The notes below the pieces were generated by a model. It was not told the DNA's origin, ran no database searches, and saw only the letters and a program-made list of their open reading frames with translations. Below, in pieces: positions 7,247 to 56,926 of a stretch of 64,000 nucleotides of DNA. Made by a program: the position numbers and the translations under genes. Each line of letters starts with the position of its first letter. Positions within the stretch are counted from its first letter, which is position 1. The stretch is taken from assembly GCA_041391605.1 (NCBI GenBank), contig JAWKNQ010000008.1:10732-74731 (forward strand), in the 5' to 3' direction. Origin of the DNA: Bacteroidia bacterium (GTDB lineage Bacteria > Bacteroidota > Bacteroidia > NS11-12g > UBA955).

Positions 7247-8512
7247 TTGATTTGTAAAATAATTTTGAACCTCCGCTCAAAAATATTGCTGTCTATTTTA
7301 ATTGTATTTGCATTATTAAATACTGGAAAATGGCTCATCAATTTCATTTCAACCCCTTATGAACCTATTGATTTCAGAGGTTGCTATTTAAGTGCAGAAG
7401 CCTATTGGAATGGAATGGACCCATATAGTTATGAGGATCAAAAAAAATTGTGGGAACCTATTCAATCTGAGAATCACGATTGGAAAATGATTGAAAATGG
7501 GGTGTATTCCACTCCATTATATCCGCCACAATTTGTTGCATTTTTCGGTTTGTATTCGCTTTTGAGCTTCAAAGTAGCTATTTGGTTACAATGGATATTA
7601 AACATTTTCGCTATTGGTCTTATTATTTGGAGTATAAGTAAACTCAACCAAAACTTGTCCGTTAAATACATTGTTCTTGGAATTATGGCGTTCAGAGGCA
7701 CTTGGTATGCATTAGATACAGGCCAGCCAATGTTACAAGTATTTGCGCTTGCTATGTATGTATTAGTATTAATTGAAAGAAAAAACTTAAGTCTGCTTCC
7801 TGGATTATTACTGGGTTTTATTTCATTTAAATACACTTTACTAATTCCTTTTGGCTTATACTTACTTTACAAAAAAGAATACAAAATTGTTTCAATATGG
7901 ATTGGACTATCCGTATTACTTAATGCTATACTATTGATACTAGACATGAATGCTCAAACACATATCCAATCGTGGTTAAACAGCATGCAATTGATGAACA
8001 ATTATCTACATCAGGACATCAGTAACAATGGACTAGCAATTATAGCAACATCTATTTCAATACCTGTGTCACAGTTGTTTAAGATATCTGAATCCGTTTC
8101 CTCGGGTCCTTTTATGATTTTAGTGCGTATAATACTACCTCTAGTTCCTTTTGTATTTATATGGATGTACAGAAAGAAATTCACTTGGCAGTATTTAATT
8201 TTCATTAGCTCACTTTGTAGCATTTGTTTTGGACATCACCTAATATACGATGTATTAACCTTAATTAGTTTGCGTCTGATTAGTATTGATAAAAATAGTT
8301 CAATTTCTAGTCTAGAATTTACATTACTGATTTTATTAGTAATTCCTTTGGGGAAGCTAGTTGAAATCAGCCATATTAATCAATTGCATTTCTTGCCTGC
8401 AGTTTACTTGTTCTTTTATTTTATCGTTCAAGTAATTCGAATAATTAAGCATCAGAATCTGCCAATACTAAACACAGAAATTGAAAACAAGTCTATAGAA
8501 CAAGACCGGTAA
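7247..8512 (+). CDS. polytopic membrane protein, possibly GT-C type glycosyltransferase (DUF2029/GT87-like)
   Basis: Long hydrophobic ORF with at least 10 predicted TM segments. The track start at 7070 overlaps the peroxiredoxin gene on the other strand. There is no ATG before the first TM, so I propose TTG at 7247. The start is uncertain. Confidence 0.5.
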   Translation: MICKIILNLRSKILLSILIVFALLNTGKWLINFISTPYEPIDFRGCYLSAEAYWNGMDPYSYEDQKKLWEPIQSENHDWKMIENGVYSTPLYPPQFVAFFGLYSLLSFKVAIWLQWILNIFAIGLIIWSISKLNQNLSVKYIVLGIMAFRGTWYALDTGQPMLQVFALAMYVLVLIERKNLSLLPGLLLGFISFKYTLLIPFGLYLLYKKEYKIVSIWIGLSVLLNAILLILDMNAQTHIQSWLNSMQLMNNYLHQDISNNGLAIIATSISIPVSQLFKISESVSSGPFMILVRIILPLVPFVFIWMYRKKFTWQYLIFISSLCSICFGHHLIYDVLTLISLRLISIDKNSSISSLEFTLLILLVIPLGKLVEISHINQLHFLPAVYLFFYFIVQVIRIIKHQNLPILNTEIENKSIEQDR

Positions 8513-18217: not shown

Positions 18218-18246
18218 TTCGCTTACTTTAAACATTTTATAAAAAA

Positions 18247-18272
18247 GCCCCCGATTTTCGTGGGCTTTTTTT
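18247..18272 (+). terminator. rho-independent terminator after rpsO
   Basis: GCCCCCGATTTTCGTGGGC hairpin followed by a T7 run. Confidence 0.7.
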
Positions 18273-18313
18273 GCTTTTTGAAAAGTAAGTTTTAAAGAAA
18301 AATAATTAATTAT

Positions 18314-20470
18314 ATGTCAAATAAACCTCAAGGATTCCGTAGTTCCATCGATATGGGTAACGGTAAATCCATCGAAATTGAAACAGGTATATTAGCCAAA
18401 CAAGCAAACGGAAGTGTAGTTCTTAAATATGGTGATACCATGATTTTAGCTACTGTCGTTTCCAACAAAGAGGCTAAAGAAAACGTGGACTTTCTTCCAC
18501 TATCTGTAGATTATCAAGAAAAATTCGCGGCTGTTGGTAGAATACCCGGTAGTTTCCACAGACGTGAAGCAAGATTAACCGACTACGAAATCCTTATTTC
18601 TAGAATCGTTGATAGAGCATTACGCCCGCTTTTCCCTGAAGACTACCACGCTGATACTCAAGTTGCACTGATGTTGATGAGTAGTGACACAAACTTCCCA
18701 CCTGATTGCCTTGTTGGTCTTGCGGCCTCTTCTGCTCTTATGGTAAGTGATATTCCCTTCCAAGGACCAATATCAGAAGTACGCGTGGCTAAAATCGACG
18801 GCCAACTCGTTATAAACCCTACTGAACCTGAACTCTTAAAAGCTAGTATGGAACTTATTGTTTCTGGTACGGCTAAAGATATTAATATGGTTGAAGGTGA
18901 ATGCGACGAGGTTAGTGAAGCCGATATGGTTGAAGCCATCAAATTTGCACATGAAGCCATTAAGCGTCAATGTCAAATGCAATGGGACCTTTGTGAACAA
19001 ATGGGTGGTAGAAAACCTACTCGTGAATACAACCATGAGAAAAAAGATGAAGAACTCAGAAAAACCATCTGGGATTTAACATACGATAAAGTTTATGCTG
19101 TAGCTAAAAGTGGTGCTCCTAAATCAGAAAGAAGCCAGAACTTTAAAGCCATCATAGACGAATATCTAGAAACCCTCTCTGAAGATGAATTGAAAGAGAA
19201 AGAATTCTTAGCTAAAAAATACTACCATGAAGTAGAAAAAGAAGCTATGAGAAAAATGATACTTGATGAAAGTATTCGTTTAGACGGTAGAGCTCTTGAT
19301 GAAGTTCGTCCAATATGGACTGAAGTTGGATATTTACCAGCTGCTCACGGTTCTGCTGTTTTCTCTCGTGGAGAAACTCAATCTGTTACAACTATTACCT
19401 TAGGTGGTAAATTAGATGAACAATTGCTAGATGCCCCTATGCTTTCTGGTTATAGCCGTCTAATGTTGCACTACAATTTCCCTGCGTATTCAACAGGTGA
19501 AGTAAGACCAAATCGCGGACCAGGACGAAGAGAAATAGGTCACGGTAACTTAGCGCTTAGAGGTATTCGAAAAGCATTGCCTAACGCTGAAGAAAACCCA
19601 TACGTTATTCGTATAGTAAGTGATATCTTAGAATCAAACGGTTCGAGTAGTATGGCAACTGTTTGTGCAGCTAGTTTAGCACTTATGGATGCAGGTATTA
19701 AAGTAAAAAGTGGTGTGAGTGGTGTTGCTATGGGATTGATAAGCGACGAGTCTACTGGAAAATACAAGATCCTTACTGATATCCTTGGCGACGAGGACCA
19801 TCTTGGAGATATGGATTTCAAAGTGGTTGGAACCGATAAAGGTATTACCGCTTGCCAAATGGACATCAAAATAAACGGTTTGAGATGGGAAATGCTTGAA
19901 GAAGCTCTCGACCAAGCGAAAAGAGGTAGAGCTCATATCTTAAACGAAATGAACAAAACCATTAATCAACCAAATACTGATTACAAACCAAATGCGCCTA
20001 GAATTGAGCGTTTAACAATTGACAAAGATCAAATTGGTGCAGTTATTGGACCTGGAGGAAAAGTAATTCAAGGTATTCAAAAAGATACAGGAGCTACAAT
20101 TTCAATTACAGAAGTAGATAACCTTGGTATTGTTGAAATCCTTTCAAGTAACGCTGAAAACATGAATGCTGCCCTTAAAATCATTAAAGGAATAGTTGCT
20201 GTTCCTGAAGTGGGTGAAGTATATGAAGGAAAAGTAAGAAGCATAGTTGAATTTGGTGCTTTCATTGAAATTCTGCCAGGTAAAGACGGTTTATTGCATA
20301 TCAGTGAAATCGACTGGAAGCGTATTCCAAAAATGGAAGGTGTATTCAAAGAAGGAGAAACTGTTAAAGTAAAACTTGTTGAGATAGATAAGAAAACGGG
20401 TAAACTTAGATTGTCGAGGAAGGTATTGCTACCTAAACCAGAACAAGAAGAAAGTAAACCACAAGCATAA
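18314..20470 (+). CDS. pnp: polyribonucleotide nucleotidyltransferase (PNPase)
   Basis: 718-aa ORF with two RNase PH domains, a KH domain ([10 protein letters not shown]) and S1 ([32 protein letters not shown]). Confidence 0.95.
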
Positions 20471-20475
20471 TTTTA

Positions 20476-20502
20476 AAAACCCGCCTTTCAGCGGGTTTTT
20501 TT
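20476..20502 (+). terminator. rho-independent terminator after pnp
   Basis: AAACCCGC-CTTTCA-GCGGGTTT hairpin followed by a T run. Confidence 0.85.
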
Positions 20503-20524
20503 ATAACTAATATTAAATAGCTAC

Positions 20525-20940
20525 TTCTTCGAAAGAGCATTTCGGTTCTCTTTAAGCATTTTCCTTTCAGCATTCGTCTCTGGCTAATAAGATTCTGCTT
20601 TTTGTTTTCATTTTCTTTTGGTGTTGCGTAAAATCTCGAACATAATGCTTTTAAGTTTATTTCTCCGCTTTTGCAACGGGCCGCACTATCTTTTCTTTTG
20701 GTAAAGAAAAGATGGCAAAAGAAAACCTTGCACCTGCATGCATTGTTAGGCAGAGCCTTGCCACGATGTTCGGTAAATCGACCCTATTGAGCCGATCTCC
20801 GCTATCCAGCGGAGCTGTCTCATTGGGTCCCTGATTTCCTCGAACACCGCGTCACCGCAATTCATGAATAGGTGCCGTGTCCTATTCAGCTTTATCGTTT
20901 AGCTCAAAAATCCCATATTCATTCGTTTTCAAAAAGATCA
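20525..20940. repeat. ~416-bp noncoding structured repeat, copy A (tandem with copy B)
   Basis: It begins TTCTTCGAAAGAGCAT, and the same string restarts at 20941, giving a 416-bp period. The GC-rich core at 20662-20885 is nearly identical to those of copies B and C. No ORF of 60 aa or more on either strand. Confidence 0.9.
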
Positions 20941-21353
20941 TTCTTCGAAAGAGCATCTCGATTCTCTTTAAGCGTTTTCCTTATAACATTCGTCTCTGGC
21001 GAATGAAATTCTGCTTTTGTTTTCTTCTTCTTACATTGTTCCGTTGAATTTCAAGCTTAGAACTTCTAACATATTCTCTCCGCTTGTGCAGCGGGCCGCA
21101 CTATCTTTTCTTTTGGCAAAGAAAAGTTAGCAAAAGAAAACCTTGCACCTGCATGCATTGTTAGGCAGAGCCTTACCACGATGTTCGGTAAATCGACCCT
21201 ATTGAGCCGATCTCCGCTATCCAGCGAAGCTGTATCATTGGGTCCCCGATTTACTCGAACACCGCGTCACCACAATCCATGAACAGGTGCTTTGTCTTAT
21301 CCATCATTATTTTTCAGTTCAAAATTCAGTTAGTCATTCATTTTCATTGATGA
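20941..21353. repeat. ~416-bp noncoding structured repeat, copy B
   Basis: Direct tandem repeat of copy A, with its core at about 21077-21296. The flanks are more diverged than the core. Confidence 0.9.
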
Positions 21354-21443
21354 TAATTCGGCTTGGATATATAAATGAGTATTAAAAAACAGATTTAGTG
21401 AAAAGTAAGATAACAAATACTAATTTATTCTTATTTTAGCAGT

Positions 21444-21920
21444 ATGAAAATCCTGAAACTATTTGCATTCATTCTTATTTGCTCTCCATTTTTGTTCTCA
21501 TGCAAAAAGAAAACTGATAAACCCAAAGGTGACCAAATTCATGTTGCCTACAACCAAGACGGTGTTCAAAAAGATTACAGACCACCTTTATACGGTTTGT
21601 CGTGGGACAATCTAGCTGTAAGTTTTCAATTTCATCGTTCTTTTGATTACAATGAAAGTTTTATATTCAGATTATACAAAAGAATTGAAACGGGTAAAAC
21701 CTACACAATTGATAGAAACACATGGTCGCAAATTAATATTTCTTATGAAGACAGTTCTGAAAACTACTATAGACTAAGTGAAGGCGAGTTCTATTTAAGC
21801 GAAAAAGACTCATTGAGTTATTTATACAAAGGAACTTTTTCTGGTCTATTTATTGAAGAAAATGACTTAGATAGTTTCTACGCTAAAAACGGAGAGTTCT
21901 ATTTCAAAAAAACCTTTTAG
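21444..21920 (+). CDS. hypothetical lipoprotein
   Basis: 158-aa ORF with a lipobox-like FLFSCKKK. Confidence 0.55.
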   Translation: MKILKLFAFILICSPFLFSCKKKTDKPKGDQIHVAYNQDGVQKDYRPPLYGLSWDNLAVSFQFHRSFDYNESFIFRLYKRIETGKTYTIDRNTWSQINISYEDSSENYYRLSEGEFYLSEKDSLSYLYKGTFSGLFIEENDLDSFYAKNGEFYFKKTF

Positions 21921-21968
21921 TGATTATACAAGTTCTTTTGCTAAATATTGGTAATATTGTAATTCGAT

Positions 21969-22538
21969 TTGAATAAAGTAATCATTTTTTCAGCACCCTC
22001 TGGAAGCGGTAAAACGACTGTGGTTAATCACCTCTTGTCGATTATTCCTGAACTGGGTTTCTCTGTTTCCGCCACCACCCGCAAGCCGCGTGCAAATGAA
22101 ACCAATGGCAAGGAATACTATTTTTTAGAAACAGAAGATTTTAAACAGAAAATTAAAGACAATGCCTTCCTTGAACACGAAGAAGTGTACAATGGTATTC
22201 TTTATGGAACCCTAAACAGTGAAGTTGAGCGCCTATGGGCTGAAGGCAAAACCGTTATATTCGATGTGGATGTGGTTGGAGGAGTTCACATCAAGGAAAA
22301 ATTTGGCGATAATGCCCTTTCAATCTTCCTTCGTCCTCCTAGCATTGAAATTCTAATGGACCGTTTGCGTAAACGCAGTACTGAAGTGGAACACCAATTG
22401 CAAATGCGTATTGATAAAGCGAAACACGAATTGAAATTTGAAAATAAATACGACATTGTTCTAGTAAACGACAAACTTGAAGAAACGCTTGAAAAAGCTG
22501 AATCTATTGTTAACTCTTTTATTCACAAAAACACATGA
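21969..22538 (+). CDS. gmk: guanylate kinase
   Basis: TTG start. It has the P-loop SAPSGSGKTT and SATTRKPR..E..G.EYYF. Confidence 0.92.
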   Translation: MNKVIIFSAPSGSGKTTVVNHLLSIIPELGFSVSATTRKPRANETNGKEYYFLETEDFKQKIKDNAFLEHEEVYNGILYGTLNSEVERLWAEGKTVIFDVDVVGGVHIKEKFGDNALSIFLRPPSIEILMDRLRKRSTEVEHQLQMRIDKAKHELKFENKYDIVLVNDKLEETLEKAESIVNSFIHKNT

Positions 22539-23092
22539 AAGTAGGATTGTTTTTCGGTTCTTTCAACCCCATACACATGGGACACCTTAGCATAGCTCAA
22601 TACATCTTAAATGAAACTGAAATTGAATCGGTACATTTTGTAGTTTCTCCTCAAAATCCGTTTAAAGAAAAAGACGAATTGATGCAGGCGGAATTGCGTT
22701 TGGAAATGGTAAGAGAATCTATAAGTGACAATCCACATATGAAGGCCTCTGACATTGAATTTAACCTTCCTCTTCCCTCTTACACATTTCAAACCTTAGA
22801 AGAACTCAGCAAAGATGAATCCCCGTTTCAATACTCGATTGTGATGGGAAGCGATACACTTGAAGATTTACCGAAATGGAAATCAGTGGAATCGATACTC
22901 GACTACCCAATTATTGTATTCAAACGCAAGCACGTTTTTAAAAATCCGTTTCCGGATCATCCAAATATCACCATTTTAGATAATCCCATCTTAAATATTT
23001 CATCTACTCTTATACGCAAAATGATTGCTGAGAAGAAAGAAATTAAATATTTGGTACGCGATGAAATCATCAATCTCTTAAATTTTAATTAA
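22535..23092 (+). CDS. nadD: nicotinate-nucleotide adenylyltransferase
   Basis: GLFFGSFNPIHMGHL and ISST.IR. It has an ATGA overlap with gmk. Confidence 0.9.
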   Translation: MKVGLFFGSFNPIHMGHLSIAQYILNETEIESVHFVVSPQNPFKEKDELMQAELRLEMVRESISDNPHMKASDIEFNLPLPSYTFQTLEELSKDESPFQYSIVMGSDTLEDLPKWKSVESILDYPIIVFKRKHVFKNPFPDHPNITILDNPILNISSTLIRKMIAEKKEIKYLVRDEIINLLNFN

Positions 23093-23101
23093 GTTTGTAG
23101 C

Positions 23102-23897
23102 ATGTCACTTGGATTTGAAATAAAAACAGCCGCTCAATACGCCTCAGAAGGCAAAACTCCAGAAGTTCTATTTTACGTAGGATGTGCCGGTAGCTTTGAT
23201 GAACGTGCTCAAAAAATCACAAAGGCATTTGCGAAGATTCTTCACCATTGCCAGGTGGATTTTGCTATCCTGGGAAGTGAAGAAGGTTGTACCGGAGATC
23301 CAGCAAAACGCGCTGGAAATGAATTCTTGTTTCAAATGCTCGCGATGAATAACATCGCTGTATTGAATGGATATGGCATTAAACGAATTGTTACTACCTG
23401 CCCGCATTGTTTCAATACCCTTAAAAACGAATATCCTTCCTTAGGTGGCGATTACCAAGTGATGCATCACACTCAGTTTTTGCAAGACCTCATTAACAAC
23501 GGCAAACTCAAAACAACGGGTGGTAGTTTTAAAGGTAAGAAAATAACCTATCACGATAGTTGTTACTCTCGGTAGAGCCAACAACGAATACATCGCGCCT
23601 AGATCTGTACTTGAAACACTGGATGCCGAATTAGTGGAAATGAAACGCTGTAAAAGCAGTGGTTTCTGTTGTGGCGCTGGTGGTGCTCAAATGTTCAAAG
23701 AAGCTGAGAAAGGTGATAAGGAAGTTAATATAGAACGCGCAGAAGAAGCGTTGTCAACAGGCGCTTCTATTGTTGCAGCTAATTGTCCATTCTGCATGAC
23801 CATGCTTAGAGATGGCGTAAAGCACCACGAAAAAGAATCGGAAGTGGAGGTTTTAGATCTTGCTGAACTTGTTGCTCAAGCAAATGATCTCATTTAA
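23102..23897 (+). pseudogene. (Fe-S)-binding oxidoreductase with two CCG (cysteine-rich) domains, single frameshift as assembled
   Basis: ORFs 23102-23575 and 23634-23897 are two halves of one protein (VGCAGSFD...TTCPHCFNTL / SGFCCGAGG...NCPFCMTML). Removing one base near 23567 (TGTTAC-T-CTCGGT) reads HDSCYLGRANNEYIAPRSVLETLDAELVEMKR and joins them. Confidence 0.85.
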
Positions 23898-23921
23898 TTC
23901 AATTTCCTTTAACCTACTTCA

Positions 23922-24322
23922 TCAAAAAGATAACTCGTTTTTTTATAAGCATTTCTTTTCAGCATTCGTCTCTGGCGAATGAAGTTCTGCTTTAGTTTTC
24001 ATTTTCTTTTAGTGTTTCGTAACATTTCAAACTTAGGACATCTAACATAATTTCTCCGCTTGTGCAGCGGGCCGCACTAACTTTTCTTTTGGTAAAGAAA
24101 AGTTAGCATAAGAAAACCTTGCACCTGCATGCATTGTTAGGCAGAGCCTTGTCACGGTGTCCGGTAAATCGACCCTATTGAGCCGATCTCCGCTATCCAG
24201 CCGAGCTGTCTCATTGGGTCCCCGATTTACTCGAACACCGCGTCACCACAATCCATGAACAGGTGCCGTGTCCTATTCAGCTTTATCGTTTAGCTTAAAA
24301 ATCCAGTTTCCCTTTCGTTTCT
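23922..24322. repeat. ~400-bp noncoding structured repeat, copy C (same orientation as A and B)
   Basis: Its core at about 24053-24275 aligns base-for-base with copies A and B, with a handful of substitutions. It is preceded by TCAAAAAGAT, which is also the A/B junction string. Confidence 0.9.
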
Positions 24323-24431
24323 AGACAGTATAATAGACATGTACTTAAACAGTGATCTAAAAGATCTGATTAAGTTTTAGAAAGAAAATAGATTATTATT
24401 TGATTTGGAAATACTCAAGAACAGCGTTCTG

Positions 24432-24668
24432 CTAATCTTGATTGTCTCTCCATTCGTAGACCCACTGACTCTGGATCATTTCTAAATGCCCCTCATTGCA
24501 CTCTTCTCGTGTGCCTTTGAAGTTCGGAAGCTCCAATACCCATTCTAACAATTCGGTAAAACGAATGCGGTAAATCTTAGGTTCGCCAAACTCGTCTCCA
24601 AATTTTTCATACAATGCAATTGCAATGTCTTCGTAATCCTTCCAGTATATTGGTAATTCGTATGCCAT
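24432..24668 (-). CDS. iscX: Fe-S cluster assembly protein IscX-like
   Basis: 78-aa acidic ORF with the pattern W.DYEDIAIALYEKF......IRFTEL..WV..L..F....E......LE.IQ..W, downstream of fdx. Confidence 0.7.
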   Translation of the reverse strand: MAYELPIYWKDYEDIAIALYEKFGDEFGEPKIYRIRFTELLEWVLELPNFKGTREECNEGHLEMIQSQWVYEWRDNQD

Positions 24669-31931: not shown

Positions 31932-32254
31932 AACTGAATTAAACTATTAAACTGCAAAAGTAGTTGTTTCCAATTAAATAGAAGGAAATGTTTGTGTCAT
32001 ATTTTGGATGAAGCAGCTTGATTATGGCAAATAAGCAATATAACGAAACTCGCATAACGAATGCCAACTCCGAATCAGCCTAAGGCTGACGGAGAGGTTA
32101 AAGGAGAATGAGAACGAAAGCGGAAGGTTCAATTCTAGAATGGACTTCCAAGTTATCTACTTCACGTTTGGCAATATGTTTGGTGTTGTATCAGCCTAAG
32201 GCTGATGAGAAAAGTTCACCAACCAATTACCAGCATTTGTCGCTCGCGTATGTG

Positions 32255-32392
32255 TCTGAACTTGGATTTGGGGAGATTATAATGATTAACGAGAATCTAA
32301 GGCAAAAACTTCTAGCAAATCCCAGAAACGTGTCCGCCTGCGGAGGATCTCAGGAATCCAAGTTCAGACGATCGCATCACGGATGCCTTTTT
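32255..32392 (+). ncRNA. candidate small structured RNA (unclassified)
   Basis: A perfect 14-bp inverted repeat, TCTGAACTTGGATT (32255-32268) / AATCCAAGTTCAGA (32355-32368), encloses smaller hairpins (TCCGC-CT-GCGGA). It is followed by GCATC-ACG-GATGC plus CTTTTT (32374-32392), which looks like a terminator. Strand and function are inferred only. Confidence 0.3.
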
Positions 32393-32926
32393 GAACCTTC
32401 CTTTTTATGATTCCCTGTAGCAGAGTGCTGCGCTGCGCTCCGCACACGCTACAGGGTAAGCAAATTGGTATGAAAGTTTAAGGTTGATGTAAATACTCCA
32501 AATTTCGTTTAAACTTTCATGCAATTTGCTAAAATTTAACTTGTATTTCTTAGCCCAATTTCGTAACTTAATTACTGCGGCGTGCGTTTGCGATTTTCTT
32601 GTATTTTTTTTCATTTTTATTATGGTTTTTTAATTTTAGTGTTTTAACTTTGGTATAGATACTTCAAACTAAAACTATTGAAGCACTATAAAGTGGGAAG
32701 CCTTATTTTAAAAACTTCTAAGGCTCCCCCACTTTTTTAAAACTATGAAAACACTAAGGAAACATATCACCTTAAACCCAGTACACTTTGTACAAAAAAC
32801 TGAAAATGAATTTCGTCCTTTATTAAAAGGATTAATTCTTTTTCTAATTGTTTTCATTCGTTGCTTAAAAGCTTCCCTTTCTTCCTTTGTTACTTTATTC
32901 CAATCTCAAGACTACTTCGTATGTTC

Positions 32927-33395
32927 TCAAAGACGTTTTTATACGTTTCAAAGACAAATCAATCTCCTTCAAAGACGCTATACTAAGTTCATTGGTTTCT
33001 ATACTTTTTTCCCTAAGCTCTGTATAAAACATCTGATGTTCTGTATAAATCACCTAAAGTCCTATATAAAAAGTATGAAGTCCTATATAAAACACCCAAT
33101 GTTCTATATAAATTGCCTAAAGTCCTATATAAAAAGTGTGAAGGCCTATATAAAACACCCAATGTTCTATATAAAATGCCTAAAGTCCTATATAAAAAAT
33201 GTGAAGGCCTATATAAAACTCCTAAAGCTCTATAAAAAAAGTGTGAAGGCCTATATAAAACACCCAATGTTCTGTATAAATCACCTAAAGGACTATATAA
33301 AATGTGTGAAGGCCTATATAAAACTTGCTAAGTCCTGTACTTTTTTCCCGAGTGTCTATATAATTTGGTGGAAGTCCTATATAAATTATACGAGT
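32927..33395. repeat. 21-bp-phased direct-repeat (iteron-like) array
   Basis: TCAAAGAC occurs 3 times at exactly 21-bp spacing (32927, 32948, 32969). Then about 18 units with core (C)CTATATAAA occur every 20-22 bp (33018-33395), organised as a 63-bp higher-order repeat with three unit subtypes. Confidence 0.9.
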
Positions 33396-33857
33396 CCATT
33401 TAAGATGATGTTAAGACTTTTCATTTACCCCATAACCCACTATTTTAGAACGCATTGCACCTATAATTTAGATTCAAGTTCCACAATGCACCAAACAAGC
33501 AACTCCTTATTAAGTTTTATGCTTAACCATATAAACCGCATTGCTAAAAATACTATTCAAGAAGGGAAAACTGTATTTAAACTCCCCAGAGGAGATACGG
33601 ATGATTGGCGATTTGCGCGACCCATGTTGTTGCCTTAGCTTTATCCAAGTAATTGTATGCTGAATACAGATCGTACAAACTAAATTTTATTCAAAACTCA
33701 ATTGAAGCAAGTTCTTGCTTTCGCCAAAACGAAAAACGGAACTCTACCTGGAACCTTCTTGCCCAAACTGAAGCAATTCATTTTGGAAACAAGAGAAAAA
33801 AAATGATGGTAGTCCATTAAAATAAAAATAAAAAATAACCTTAAAAAAAATAAAATT

Positions 33858-35519: not shown

Positions 35520-36233
35520 TCAAAGTATTACCCCCAACTTTAAATGCAAGGTAGAATAATTTCTTGAAGGCCTAAAATTAAAATCATTGGGATCAATATT
35601 CCTATTTGGTTGCCTTCTCACTTTTTCATAATTATAATTATATGTTCCTTCAATTGATATTGAAAAATGATTCTTTATTAGTATTCCAACACTATTGCCT
35701 ACTCCTATTCCTATACTGTTATATGGATTTCGTGAAGTGACAAATTCTCCCCATAAAGAAGCTCTTATGTAGTCTACAAAATATTCTTCTCCTAATCCAT
35801 ACCTATAGTTGGCTGATATATTTGGAGACATGTAAAACATTTTATATCTAAATGTTCGTCCTGTTCCTAATCTAAAAGATTTAAAACCATATGTTATAGT
35901 TTTACCAGGCTCCATTTCAGGTCTATCAGGCTGAGATCTATCTATAAAATAATCTGTGGTACTATAAATTGAATAATAATCCAATTTGGCAAAACACTTT
36001 CTCCAATAATACACGGATAAGGAATAATATTTCGTTGATTCAGCTCTTTTTAAATTGTCTCCATCACCATTGAAAAAATCAACATAATTATTACCTAATT
36101 CGAAAAGAATTCTGCTATTTCGTTTGACAGGTGCAATTGAATCTGTGTCATTTGATGAATAGATACTAGACTTCAATAGGAATAAAAAAAGAAAAAGAAG
36201 CAAAACCTTAATACCATTCATAAGTAAAATCAC
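35520..36233 (-). CDS. hypothetical outer-membrane beta-barrel-like protein
   Basis: 237-aa ORF with a signal peptide and an alternating aromatic/polar pattern rich in Tyr, Gly and Asn. It is the only sizeable minus-strand gene in the island. Confidence 0.5.
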   Translation of the reverse strand: MILLMNGIKVLLLFLFLFLLKSSIYSSNDTDSIAPVKRNSRILFELGNNYVDFFNGDGDNLKRAESTKYYSLSVYYWRKCFAKLDYYSIYSTTDYFIDRSQPDRPEMEPGKTITYGFKSFRLGTGRTFRYKMFYMSPNISANYRYGLGEEYFVDYIRASLWGEFVTSRNPYNSIGIGVGNSVGILIKNHFSISIEGTYNYNYEKVRRQPNRNIDPNDFNFRPSRNYSTLHLKLGVIL

Positions 36234-36584
36234 TATAAATTGAACTTAAATATACTCATCTCCGAATTCAAATATAAATCATTAGTTTAAAGTTTGCTAT
36301 CTTTTGAATATTATTCATGGTATTTTCAATAACACATATTAAGAAAACATACTCTTTGATGCTCGCTAACGCATCCCACCACAACATACCAAGAAACTAC
36401 CCTTCCACAACCTTATTAATTAGCAAAACTCCTAACAGTCTGTCGTAACTATAAATAGGTATTTTGGGGAAATAAAGGGGTAAAAACTTGTTTATGTTGC
36501 CCGTAAGTTTGAAATTGCAAATCAAACACTTACAAACACTTGAATTGCTTAATCAAAAAGAACACAAGCAATTAAATCAACCCT

Positions 36585-38680
36585 ATGGAACAAGAAGGAG
36601 GAAATGGAGGAAAGGAAGATGGAGGTATGAGTAAGTTAGCAGATATTTTAGAACAGACCCCAAATCACACATCAAGCAATACGAAAATAAGTAATGACAA
36701 TAGGCGTAAATCAGACAGTATCACCAATAAAATTTTGTTTTCTAATTGAGCTGCTCTGAAAGCAAATTTGAACGAGCGGTTAAAATTGCGTTTTCGTATT
36801 AGAGGTGGAATTTTCAGCCCAATTTTACCTCTTCATTCTGTATTGCCAGACGAATTTAAAAATGAATATGCTATTAGAGTATGACGCTTTAAATTACTAT
36901 AAAAACACAATAGACAATTTTGACCCTGACATTATTCTTTACGACAATTCTTTGGACGTAGAATATGCTAAGACATTAATTGGAACAGGACTTTACTAAC
37001 AATTGAAGACTTTCTTGCTGACACTGAAAAGGCGAAATTAAATACGGAATAAGTGTTCCTGAACTAATTTCCAACATTATTGAAACAGAGTTTAAGTTTG
37101 TAAGAAATGACAATTTAAAACTTTCCTTAAACCTTACACAAAATTCAGGCTTATTCTTAAAATCATTTATAGGTTTGCTTTGTAGATAGCTTTCAAACGG
37201 AAATAAGTAATCCAATTAAAAATCGTATCCTCATTTTGAACAACCCGAAATAACTTTTGAAAATATTACTGACCATTTTCAAATGAAATAGTAGCACGTT
37301 GGACATCAATATGCAAGAAATCAAATCGTTTCCCGAAGGAAGAGCGTTGGTTTAAGGGCGAAGGTGTTTATTTTCTCAATGAAACAAGGCTAAACGACAT
37401 TATTAACTATTGGAATTTGAGGGCACTTGGTTGGAGTATTATTCCTATACCGTTAAGCCAAATTGACAACCCATATTTTTGCTGGTTTTATAGAAAGATT
37501 TAGTAAATATCAATTAGCAAAATCAGAAAATTTATCAATGTCAATTATTAGCTTTCAAATCAGCGTAACAACGACAACTGAACAAAGGCAAAAAATTGAC
37601 CAAAAGCTCAAGAAATAGAGGAACAAGATTGATGTCAAACTGAATTTTGCATTTCGAGCTGGTTTCCCAGATATTGGGCGGAAGAAAAGTCTGTTTTAGA
37701 AGCCGACAAAGTTTTATGTGGAAAAACACAAATTAGCTCTGCATATTCGCAAGTGGAAGTTCAAGAAAATCGGGTAAAGTTCCAAAACCGATGATTTACC
37801 ATTCAAACTTAAATACAATTACAACCTGACAGCCTCTCATAAAGAAGTAAATCTCATTCAATTACTTTGACGAGTATTTGAACAGATGCAGGCCTGATAT
37901 ATGGTATAGAAACTATTGATTGGGTAAGATTGACACATTCTTTTGGTCGAGATAAGTGGCGATTATCTAAAACTGGTCTAAGCCACTGCGTTAGACGAGA
38001 CGATAGTGAAGTGTATTTTTATGTTCCCAAAGCAAAAGATTTTTCAAAGTGTTTTTCTCTAAAGCTGGAAATAAATTAAATGAAACTTGAAATGGTCGTT
38101 TAGCAAATGAAGTATTAAAAAATATTGGAGGCATACAAGGTTCATATTTTTTGCAAAATAAATCTTCTCTCAAAATACTTGAGTTAATTGAAGACGGAAG
38201 AAAACTGTTTATCACCCACAATTAGTTGGAGAAATAAGAAAAGTTTAAAGACCAATGATAATGAACAAGTAAACTCTTATGTTAAAAGAATAATAGAAAA
38301 CAAAATAATTGAGTTTGGTTCAATTCTACAATGTGAGGTTTGTCATCAGCACGCATTTTATCTTCCATCAAATTGAGGGGAAACAATGCCTTGTGCTATT
38401 TGCAGAAATAATTTTAGTCTGCCAATGCACCACAAACCAAATAAAATGGAAGCAGCATCGTGGAATTGGACCCTTCAGTAAAAACAATAAAGTAGGTGGT
38501 GTAATAACAGTATTTTTAACTCTAAAAGTTATTCAACCAGAGATTGCTGACACTACAGGTAATATGTCTGCACTAATCGGTTTTGAGCTTTTAAAAGACA
38601 ACAATATAAAAAGAAGTTGACCTTGCAGTTATGCTTCAGGAAAAACACAAAGACAGTGTTCCACCCGACTTAATTTTTTA
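36585..38680 (+). pseudogene. heavily frame-disrupted remnant of a large gene (Zn-ribbon plus nuclease-like C-terminus)
   Basis: About 2.1 kb with no ORF over 103 aa, yet protein-like stretches hop among the three + frames. Examples are YVPKAKDFSKCFSLK / AGNKLNETWNGRLANEVLKNIGGIQGSYFLQNKSSLKILELIEDGRKLFITHN / KIIEFGSILQCEVCHQHAFY / MPCAICRNNFSLP / GIGPFSKNNKVGGVITVFLTLKVIQPEIADTTGNMSALIGFELLKD / EVDLAVMLQEKHKDSVPPDLIF. Confidence 0.55.
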
Positions 38681-39067
38681 ATGGAATGTAAAACATATAA
38701 AAACTTCACCTCTGACGATGCAGATAAAATGATTGAATTGAACAGAATTTCCCAATTCAATTCTGACTTACCTACAACACTAAATGACGAATTAACAGAA
38801 AATGAAAAAACGGAAATTTTACGAGTTGTAAATAATTTTAGAACTGGTTACGGTCACCGACCAACAAATCCTGTTCTTATTTTAACCGCAAAGGAATTGT
38901 TACCAAAAGACTTTTGGGGACATTTTTCCGAATACGAAAATGAAGCCAAAACTTATCACAAATACAACGACTGGATTGGAAATTTATGTGAGTTTACCGT
39001 AAAGAAACACTTGAACGTCAAAACTTGGGGTGAAATACAAAGTGAATTATGGCGAAAGCGGAAATGA
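38681..39067 (+). CDS. hypothetical protein, probably the still-open 3' end of the decayed upstream gene
   Basis: 128-aa ORF. Adding one T to the T6 run at 38674-38679 fuses ...EVDLAVMLQEKHKDSVPPDLIF to LMECKTYKNF, creating a D...ExK pattern that resembles PD-(D/E)xK nucleases. Confidence 0.5.
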   Translation: MECKTYKNFTSDDADKMIELNRISQFNSDLPTTLNDELTENEKTEILRVVNNFRTGYGHRPTNPVLILTAKELLPKDFWGHFSEYENEAKTYHKYNDWIGNLCEFTVKKHLNVKTWGEIQSELWRKRK

Positions 39068-45073: not shown

Positions 45074-45125
45074 ATTCGGATTTCTGAATCAGATTTTAGG
45101 TATAAAAAATAAACTCTAAATATAT

Positions 45126-45153
45126 GGTTAACAAAACTAGAAACAAACTATTG
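45126..45153 (+). promoter_or_regulatory. conserved island motif, instance H (partial)
   Basis: GGTTAACAAAACTAGAAACAAACTATTG lies about 58 nt upstream of the 45211 start and matches the first half of the motif. Confidence 0.4.
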
Positions 45154-45210
45154 AAAACAAAAAACCCTAATCAACTCGGTCGATTGAACAACTTATAAGA
45201 ATTACTCCCA

Positions 45211-46131: not shown

Positions 46132-46225
46132 TAAATAGGAAAATCATAACAATTAAAACTATGAGCTGAGGTGATTGGGGTTTATTAATGGATAAAAGAG
46201 GCTTTTTATAGAATTAGCAAATTAG

Positions 46226-46263
46226 TTTGGAGAACAAAACTAGAAATAGGAAATTGCAGAAGG
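46226..46263 (+). promoter_or_regulatory. conserved island motif, instance A (reference copy)
   Basis: TTTGGAGAACAAAACTAGAAATAGGAAATTGCAGAAGG ends 54 nt upstream of the 46318 start. Confidence 0.8.
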
Positions 46264-46317
46264 AAATGAATTCATTCCGCAAATTTAAATTGACATTAAA
46301 AATTGTAAATCAATAAA

Positions 46318-48102: not shown

Positions 48103-48179
48103 AAATCTACTGAATAAGCATTCAAAACAACTAAAACCAACTAAGTTCTTTTACAACCTATAAATTAAATATACAATAA

Positions 48180-48217
48180 TTTGGAGAACAAAACTAGAAA
48201 TAGGAAATTGCAAAGTG
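48180..48217 (+). promoter_or_regulatory. conserved island motif, instance B
   Basis: TTTGGAGAACAAAACTAGAAATAGGAAATTGCAAAGTG is identical to instance A over the first 34 nt. It ends 17 nt upstream of the 48235 start. Confidence 0.8.
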
Positions 48218-48234
48218 AAAATTGAATCAACTCA

Positions 48235-49374: not shown

Positions 49375-49608
49375 GAGTAATATTTATTAAATTGATATCT
49401 AATTTGATTGGAGAATCAAAAAGAATTGAAGAAACCTATTAAATTAATTGCCATACTTGAGAAAAGCTACTACTACAAAACACGAATAAGTGATACATGC
49501 ACTTCGCAAATTGCTATGACGACTAAAAAATATATTATTAGACAAAATGACGAATAGATACTCTTAATAAAATAAATCTTAAAACGTTAGGAAATCAAGG
49601 ATAGATAA

Positions 49609-49624
49609 TAGAAATTGCAGAAGG
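49609..49624 (+). promoter_or_regulatory. conserved island motif, instance C (second half only; the first-half-like GATTGGAGAATCAAAAAGAA lies about 200 bp upstream at ~49405)
   Basis: TAGAAATTGCAGAAGG ends 51 nt upstream of the 49676 start. It is preceded at 49582-49592 by AAAACGTTAGG, the same string that ends attC sites 1 and 2. Confidence 0.45.
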
Positions 49625-49675
49625 AACAGGTTTGAGTTAACAATAGAAATTTAAATAATAAAGAAAGTTCATTCG

Positions 49676-52300: not shown

Positions 52301-52315
52301 ATATTTGTCAAATGG

Positions 52316-52354
52316 TTTGGAAAACATCAATGGAAATAGAGAATTGTATAGGGG
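52316..52354 (+). promoter_or_regulatory. conserved island motif, instance I
   Basis: TTTGGAAAACATCAATGGAAATAGAGAATTGTATAGGGG lies about 78 nt upstream of the 52433 start. Confidence 0.55.
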
Positions 52355-52432
52355 AATTAAAATACACTTATTATTCAGAACAGAAGAGAAAAACAAAGTG
52401 ATACAATAAGTAGATTATTATTTATATAAGAA

Positions 52433-52912: not shown

Positions 52913-52927
52913 AATTACCAATGTAGA

Positions 52928-52964
52928 TTGGAGTGCAGAAATGGAAACAGCAAATTGCAGAAGG
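52928..52964 (+). promoter_or_regulatory. conserved island motif, instance E
   Basis: TTGGAGTGCAGAAATGGAAACAGCAAATTGCAGAAGG is followed at 53002-53008 by GTTAGAA, which lies 10 nt before the ATG at 53018. Confidence 0.55.
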
Positions 52965-53017
52965 TGCTGGTAATTGAGCAAAGTCAAGTACTTATAAACA
53001 AGTTAGAATATTTAAAA

Positions 53018-56855: not shown

Positions 56856-56867
56856 GTGTTCTTTAAA

Positions 56868-56905
56868 TTTGGAGAACGAAACTAGAATTTGCAAATTGCG
56901 TGAGG
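56868..56905 (+). promoter_or_regulatory. conserved island motif, instance G
   Basis: TTTGGAGAACGAAACTAGAATTTGCAAATTGCGTGAGG ends 21 nt upstream of the ATG at 56927. Confidence 0.65.
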
Positions 56906-56926
56906 ATATTGATCAACAGCTCAACC

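Follow-up and report, generated by a model that had tools for sequence, protein, structure and literature searches.

What is the sequence that occurs three times between the genes of one short genomic segment, encodes no recognizable protein and keeps its middle part nearly unchanged? The question is raised by a 64,000-nucleotide stretch of an uncultured Bacteroidia bacterium (assembly GCA_041391605.1, contig JAWKNQ010000008.1, positions 10,732 to 74,731 of the forward strand), hereafter the window, in which a unit of about 420 bp stands twice behind the gene for polynucleotide phosphorylase (PNPase, pnp) and once more behind a gene for a CCG-domain Fe-S oxidoreductase. The repeat is real, noncoding and matches no known family, it is confined to one uncultured Bacteroidia lineage, and it is best regarded as a lead rather than a discovery. 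We favor, tentatively and with somewhat less than even confidence, the explanation that it belongs with the structured, noncoding intergenic repeats of the ERIC/bcr/REPIN kind, restricted to its lineage, and that its core would act as an RNA. The three copies are as follows.

20521-20940, + strand: repeat copy A, first unit of a head-to-tail dimer, starting ~19 nt past the T-run of the pnp terminator
20941-21360, + strand: repeat copy B, second unit of the dimer, with no spacer to A, ending 83 nt before the start of a 158-aa gene
23914-24333, + strand: repeat copy C, a monomer beginning 17 nt past the stop of the CCG-domain gene, between convergent genes

A repeat search of the window returned these units in the same orientation, with start-to-start spacings of 415/416 and 2976 nt, and their boundaries were refined by a three-way alignment (A1). 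The core 32-mer CCTTGCACCTGCATGCATTGTTAGGCAGAGCC and a core 31-mer each occur exactly three times in the 64 kb, with no occurrence expected, and chance as the source of the three copies is excluded. A profile search (nhmmer --max) detected no further copies or fragments in the window. Among open reading frames (ORFs) that have a start codon, the longest in any copy measures 56 aa; a coding reading was dropped because most substitutions in the longest frames common to the copies are non-synonymous, and because a small - strand ORF (MKTKAE...) has a frameshift in A. An earlier account drawn from the letters alone (the sequence-only reading) had described three copies, A and B head-to-tail, free of ORFs of at least 60 aa and lying behind terminators or stop codons of pnp and the Fe-S oxidoreductase gene; all of this holds, and the refined boundaries fall within ~10 nt of those it gave.

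Every unit is composed of an AT-rich left arm of ~140 bp, a 214-bp core and an AT-rich right arm of ~60 bp. The left arm carries two small hairpins, AAAGAG/CTCTTT and CATTCG/CGAATG, and nothing similar lies near the right end. As a separate observation, the left end of C (23914-23940, TCAAAAAGATAACTC) resembles the A/B junction (20925-20950, TCAAAAAGATCATTC) at 13/15 positions (p ~0.03). The likeness is too weak to build on; it hints at a possible descent of C from a unit that formerly had a neighbor on its upstream side, or at a short imperfect terminal direct repeat carried by the units.

The core differs from the arms in both divergence and base composition.

A 20663-20876, B 21078-21291, C 24054-24267: conserved GC-rich core, 214 bp, columns 159-372 of alignment A1

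Variable columns amount to 20/214 in the core (9.3%) and 74/202 in the arms (35-40%; Fisher p=1.7e-11), and pairwise identity, 93-95% in the core, falls to 75-77% for the left and 59-82% for the right arm. The core has a GC fraction of 0.47-0.57, compared with 0.35 for the window, and elevated GC is typical of structured RNA in AT-rich genomes. The sequence-only reading had called the core far better conserved than its flanks and richer in GC, and these figures bear it out. Expressed per copy, divergence is ~11% in the arms and ~3% in the core, so the core has evolved ~3-4 times more slowly than the arms in all three copies, and it is evidently constrained at the level of sequence. In the palindromic part of the core described below, the 5' arms are invariant and most changes lie in the 3' arms, an asymmetry that suggests constraint on the sequence beyond what pairing would demand.

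Private differences of the three copies number 14, 17 and 15 for the left arm; for the core the counts are 9, 5 and 6. This makes the copies about equidistant, in a star-like pattern. Because of this equidistance the tandem pair is no younger than the dispersed copy, and the pattern points to a probable origin of all three in a single burst rather than in a recent tandem duplication. The arm divergence per copy is comparable in magnitude to one half of the synonymous divergence (dS) from the closest relative on record (pnp dS 0.55, rpsO dS 0.25). Selection for transposability after a burst would miss some resident copies, so a core that is slow in all three speaks for either a function of the core in place or homogenization by gene conversion.

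In its predicted fold the core begins with two hairpins, H1 and H2, followed by a 146-nt imperfect palindrome forming a three-way junction.

20664-20680: hairpin H1, CCGCT/AGCGG with a 5-nt loop and a closing U-G pair; one pair in copy A reads C.A (+ strand) or G.U (- strand)
20686-20715: hairpin H2, 13 predicted + strand pairs with perfect arms of 11-13 nt, (A/T)CTTTTCTTT-TGGT-AAAGAAAAG(A/T)
A 20730-20875, B 21145-21290, C 24121-24266: 146-nt imperfect palindrome, predicted to fold as a three-way junction
20865-20888, + strand: alternative 8-bp hairpin TGAATAGG / CCTATTCA, then GCTTTATCGTTT; weakly terminator-like and overlapping the 3' arm of junction helix P1

In the junction, the closing helix P1 pairs GCACCTG-CATG-ATTGT with ACAAT-CATG-CAGGTGC, P2 is a long segmented hairpin (TGTTCG / GTAAATCG / GACCC / TGAG / CTCCGC, loop TATCCA), and P3 is the small hairpin GGCAGAGCC. 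The one compensatory pair is located in H2, an A/T-rich palindrome; it reads T-A in A, T.T in B and A-T in C. Compared with dinucleotide shuffles, 0/200 of which were as stable, the fold has z scores of -3.7 and -6.2 (+ strand) and of -4.7 and -6.6 (- strand). Standard pairs fill 96% of the pair cells, a share that drops to 36-42% if the 3' partners are displaced by 1-3 columns. Of the two strands, the - strand has somewhat higher stability and more G. The reverse strand of the palindrome is matched by the profile built from the repeat itself (nhmmer E about 1e-6) and also by a covariance model, R1, built on the 156-nt junction with 56 pairs. The alternative hairpin is perfect in A and disrupted in B; in C it has one mismatch, C.A on the + strand, which is G.U on the - strand. 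All helices named by the sequence-only reading were recovered by single-sequence folding and by RNAalifold, and the double change between A and C, with its intermediate in B, is exactly as that reading described it. As far as modeling goes, the predicted core fold is real.

No known family accounts for this structure. Rfam 15 at the gathering score gave no match in the whole window, and with E up to 10 none inside the repeats when positions 20400-24400 were searched; copy C alone (a 441-nt query, E up to 10) drew only a chance hairpin match to mir-2041 (E 0.29). These tests covered RNase P, transfer-messenger RNA (tmRNA), signal recognition particle (SRP) RNA, 6S, group I/II introns, HEARO/omega-RNA, riboswitches and ribozymes, and ARAGORN found no tRNA or tmRNA, in agreement with the sequence-only reading, which had recognized no known RNA. 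The core has no match in PLSDB plasmids or INPHARED phages (blastn, word size 11). An exact 20-mer has 0 matches in GTDB genomes, and an exact 19-mer is present at 7 loci in JGI metagenomes, all chance matches of 19-20 nt. Four exact words were searched in IMG/VR, where two 20-mers gave none and an 18-mer and a 16-mer gave chance matches only. Six stop-free frames of the repeat, concatenated, have no homologue among 5.8 billion proteins, and a protein search with the two small proteins flanking the repeat returned only the protein of the same metagenome-assembled genome (MAG) and distant Fe-S assembly homologues. Two candidate identities were rejected: an integron attC site, whose GTTAGGC core site has by inspection the wrong position and orientation, and a group II intron domain V for GAGCCGAU...CUGUCUC, which misfits in pairing and loop and has no Rfam signal.

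Whether the units are old residents of their sites can be judged from the same loci in related genomes, which requires the neighboring genes to be introduced.

18314-20470, + strand: pnp, encoding PNPase (MEZ4804693.1), upstream neighbor of the A-B dimer
20476-20502, + strand: intrinsic terminator of pnp, CCCGC-loop-GCGGG then T7, directly upstream of A and outside the repeat
23102-23897, + strand: CCG-domain Fe-S oxidoreductase gene, upstream neighbor of C, frameshifted by one extra T near 23566
24432-24668, - strand: Fe-S assembly gene (PF04384), in convergent orientation to the CCG gene; read on the - strand, C is found downstream of the 3' end of the Fe-S assembly gene

The 158-aa protein encoded next to PNPase is MEZ4804694.1. 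The frameshift in the CCG gene (TGTTACTCTCGG versus TGTTAC-CTCGG in relative L002) splits a protein of 263-264 aa in all relatives into ORFs of 157 and 87 aa, and the gene is either a pseudogene or the victim of a consensus error in the MAG.

The pnp loci of 88 relatives were collected, 80 from GTDB species representatives (1.3 Mb) and 8 from ENA/Logan/JGI contigs, ~1.4 Mb in total. The order rpsO-pnp-(146-163-aa gene)-gmk-nadD-CCG, followed by the convergent Fe-S assembly gene, Fer2 and ABC-F, is conserved in most relatives at 84-88% PNPase identity. No copy of the repeat was detected in relatives by blastn and nhmmer on the first 89 loci or by model R1 on all loci (~1.6 Mb). In relatives at 81-88% PNPase identity that keep the order, the next gene (the 146-163-aa gene or gmk) starts ~100-260 bp after pnp with only a terminator between, compared with a gap of 973 bp here, 840 bp of which is the A-B dimer. 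Likewise, the gap between the CCG and Fe-S assembly genes is 534 bp here and 11-191 bp in six of ten syntenic relatives. The other four have a larger gap, of 380-2322 bp, filled with unrelated sequence, and an eleventh, L108, has ~6.5 kb of extra genes between the two genes. Since the size of this gap varies and it holds unrelated material, the spot is permissive for insertions. Because the sites are short and copy-free in relatives, the units are best explained as lineage-specific gains. The closest relative on record (97% PNPase identity, average nucleotide identity ~90%) is represented by a 4-kb contig that ends 38 nt after pnp and is uninformative for the site.

Some further features of these loci deserve mention. 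L010, L015 and L108 are also among the relatives whose CCG/Fe-S assembly gap varies, the range running from 11 bp to ~6.5 kb. In L002 (6989-7343) and L013 (~7250-7480) the gap contains orphan stretches rich in GC (up to 56% and 61%, respectively), which resemble neither each other nor the repeat. The 355-bp stretch of L002, at the site of C, was considered as a relative of the repeat and rejected, being dissimilar, unrepeated and poorly folded. The left and right ends of the unit have no similarity to the pnp-downstream intergenic sequences of L105, L106 and L110 (all p >= 0.09); the A/B junction gives a gapped, AT-rich alignment to the same sequences (p 0.017-0.05) that was judged to be chance. 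Upstream of pnp, the rpsO-pnp leader (18218-18313) is identical to L001 (1864-1959) at 95/96 nt, hairpin included, despite a pnp dS of 0.55, which indicates that the leader is probably under strong constraint.

Bacterial genomes contain several families of intergenic repeats to which the present unit can be compared, and by loose bcr-like or ERIC-like standards it belongs among them, being multi-copy, noncoding, intergenic, present or absent between relatives, and stably folded by prediction. The bcr repeats of the Bacillus cereus group (bcr1 ~155 bp, family ~100-400 bp) are likewise lineage-restricted and intergenic, with a non-conserved distribution and a stable multi-helix or cruciform-like fold. 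However, they share no sequence similarity with our unit, which is larger (~420 bp) and places a GC-rich core between AT-rich arms; moreover, bcr1 has flanking 5-bp direct repeats, and none were found around the repeat here. ERIC and the enterobacterial RU-1, a 127-bp imperfect palindrome, resemble it in being long intergenic palindromes at gene 3' ends, similar in size to the 146-nt palindrome of the core. ERIC-type elements differ in possessing terminal inverted repeats (TIRs), target duplications and a flanking TA, with TIRs and target-site duplications (TSDs) absent at the unit ends here, and our palindrome is embedded with two further hairpins and ~200 bp of non-palindromic arms, in a different phylum and with no sequence similarity.

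REP and REPIN elements, mobilized by RAYT/TnpA-REP, share with the repeat a GC-rich palindromic nature, extragenic location at gene 3' ends or between convergent genes, and the lack of TIRs and TSDs. They persist vertically within a lineage and form composite head-to-tail or alternating arrays known as BIMEs (PMC3184786). REPs are 20-40 nt and REPINs ~100 nt long, usually in more than 100 copies, whereas the unit here is ~420 bp with a 146-nt palindrome and three copies within 64 kb, its three-way-junction core is more complex than the REPIN hairpin, and no RAYT occurs among the 20 window ORFs scanned. Miniature inverted-repeat transposable elements (MITEs) such as Correia, RUP and Nezha are, like this unit, shorter than 500 bp, devoid of a transposase, intergenic and able to form long stem-loops as RNA. 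A classical MITE was rejected, in that the unit lacks the defining TIRs and TSDs. ERIC, REP and bcr1 are on record as occurring at the 3' ends of genes, as being co-transcribed and as influencing mRNA stability; ERIC in particular is able to modulate mRNA decay, and bcr1 is transcribed and shows base-pair compensatory changes (PMC3184786).

Taken with these precedents, the favored explanation would run as follows. Through duplication or transposition, a ~420-bp unit may have reached two or more intergenic sites at gene 3' ends, one of them now with a precise head-to-tail dimer. After the spread, the AT-rich arms would have drifted while the core was held. As the core has evolved more slowly than the arms, it would be the functional part, comprising the two hairpins and the three-way-junction palindrome. 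It could be transcribed by read-through from the preceding gene, or its own arm could supply the promoter; once transcribed, it would fold into a stable module serving as a 3'-end structure (an exonuclease barrier, a processing site or a termination aid) or as a small RNA (sRNA). Most likely the core would act at the RNA level. Transcription, strand, mobilizing enzyme and physiological role of the repeat are all things that we infer.

A number of results weigh against this explanation, and they concern both its RNA and its mobile half. The sequence-only reading had proposed selection on structure: the constrained core and its strong self-complementarity stand, but the one compensatory change is no proof, and the covariation check over all copies did not supply it. 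Covariation in the three sequences is not significant, its score being reached by 322/500 column shuffles on the + strand and 319/500 on the - strand, and the H2 T-A/A-T exchange is the only double change in the core helices. On the + strand seven predicted pairs are broken, each in one copy, and three variable pairs are kept by wobble; on the - strand wobble preserves five variable pairs, and about seven pairs are broken. With wobble so similar (3 versus 5) and breaks alike, the two strands are not separated. Variable columns are about equally frequent at paired and unpaired core positions. As to signals of transcription, no match to the Bacteroidota-type promoter TAnnTTTG is conserved in all three copies, the sole exact match lying in copy C on the - strand and pointing away from the core, and no canonical terminator was found after the core. 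In addition, GC-biased ectopic gene conversion could both homogenize the core and raise its GC.

No homologue of the repeat was found elsewhere, and what suggests mobility is that the sites are short and copy-free in relatives, which are themselves distant (pnp dS is saturated against L002). TIRs, which the sequence-only reading had likewise not seen, are absent, the left end matching the reverse-complemented right end no better than shuffles do (A, B, C and the A-B array; p 0.15-0.99). TSDs are likewise lacking, with no shared k-mer of at least 6 nt at the boundaries (+/-6 nt) and only chance 4-5-mers. A scan of 20 ORFs of the window gave no transposase or nuclease. The sequences flanking A are unrelated to those flanking C, and what the left flanks of the two share is CTAC(TT), which the A/B junction does not have. 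An IS200/IS605-derived element (PATE) would be expected to have similar subterminal hairpins at both ends and a conserved 4-5-nt target 5' of the left end, and an origin of that type is conceivable.

The strongest of the competing explanations, which we consider doubtful, sees in the copies paralogous, independently transcribed sRNA genes, each with an AT-rich promoter, a structured RNA of ~220-260 nt and a weak terminator, acting in trans and multiplied by gene duplication. A conserved core between variable arms and a strong predicted fold are what such genes would display, and retention of the core in all three copies despite their old divergence agrees with it. It can also point to the + strand hairpin followed by GCUUUAUCGUUU at the 3' edge of the core, and, in A and B, to a near-consensus -7-like box (gATTTTTG or gAATTTTG) that precedes the core on the - strand. 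However, the promoter-like boxes are not conserved across the three copies, and the orientation of the exact one in C is the wrong one for the core; the terminator-like hairpin, on the + strand, is disrupted in B and mismatched in C. Moreover, neither site has an orthologous gene in relatives, and three such genes within 4 kb of a single species-level lineage would be unusual.

It is unlikely, in our estimate, that the repeat is selfish or neutral DNA with no RNA function, its cores being kept alike by ectopic GC-biased gene conversion or its hairpin DNA serving as the substrate of a transposase or recombinase supplied in trans (RAYT/IS200-IS605-like). Several of the observations above would be at home here: the hairpins are true DNA palindromes, so that the compensatory change preserves the DNA palindrome as well as the RNA helix; the missing TIRs and TSDs are predicted by Y1/HUH-type mobilization; the spacer-free head-to-tail dimer fits end-targeted insertion or accretion; substitutions that break helices are as frequent as those that preserve them; and invariant 5' arms with changed 3' arms are unexpected if only pairing mattered. 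Against this, the unit ends bear no similar subterminal hairpins, in that nothing matching the left-arm hairpins lies near the right end, the left flanks have no more than CTAC(TT) in common, and that in just two of the three, and the scanned ORFs include no transposase. Gene conversion alone would leave the 146-nt palindrome and the two hairpins, with z down to -6.6, unexplained, and the star-like core (9, 5 and 6 private changes) shows that no two of the copies have recently undergone conversion.

An orphan guide-RNA module of an insertion sequence (TnpB/IscB omega-RNA or IS110 bridge/seek RNA), left behind or mobilized non-autonomously without its protein gene, is very improbable: its ~200-nt size, multi-helix fold, lack of TIRs and TSDs and circle-junction-like head-to-tail joint show a loose resemblance to such modules, but neither HEARO nor any other Rfam family matched even at E up to 10 on the 441-nt query, no TnpB, IscB or DEDD gene is among the ORFs scanned, the flanking target sequences are not conserved, and the core shares no word of at least 8 nt with the flanks or the A/B junction on either strand (only low-complexity AAAAGAT-type 7-mers), as the loops of a bridge RNA need, which counts against a module of that type.

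There is also a bolder reading. In it, the core would be an undescribed class of structured RNA, carried on a self-propagating unit with neither TIRs nor TSDs and under purifying selection in every copy, either as a mobile-element RNA (guide-, ribozyme- or retro-type) or as a 3'-end module domesticated by the host, in an uncultured freshwater Bacteroidia lineage; we rate this quite unlikely. The readings overlap, as is illustrated by bcr1, which is both mobile and transcribed.

Elsewhere the window contains other noncoding or repetitive features. A motif of ~40 nt, GTTTGGAGAACAAAACTAGAAATAGGAAATTGCAGAAGG, is found in seven + strand copies (45122-45162, 46225-46265, 48179-48219, 49586-49626, 52315-52355, 52926-52966 and 56867-56907), most of them within ~120 nt upstream of + strand ORFs (encoding, among others, an S41 peptidase and an LRR protein); a co-regulated gene cluster might share it as a promoter, an operator or an element of the 5' untranslated region. 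The stretch 32050-32460 is ORF-free and locally GC-rich (up to 54%), with several strong hairpins, two occurrences of ATCAGCCTAAGGCTGA and long inverted repeats at ~32245-32375 and 32413-32457; it has no Rfam match and is unrelated to the repeat. Within a 297-aa ORF (32745-33638), positions 32934-33395 consist of 21-nt (7-aa) tandem repeats in 13 or more units. Finally, 36233-38681 is ~2.4 kb of AT-rich sequence with no ORF of at least 120 aa and with fragments of 51-103 aa on both strands, which may be decayed genes or a noncoding island.

What the repeat means for its host depends on which of these explanations is right. If it is only a selfish palindromic repeat, it would be an ordinary lineage-specific intergenic repeat, of value as a marker and as a cause of assembly breaks. 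If the core is a selected, transcribed RNA, it would represent a structured RNA absent from Rfam in an uncultured Bacteroidia clade, and a dispersed repeat that has been retained for its fold instead of decaying.

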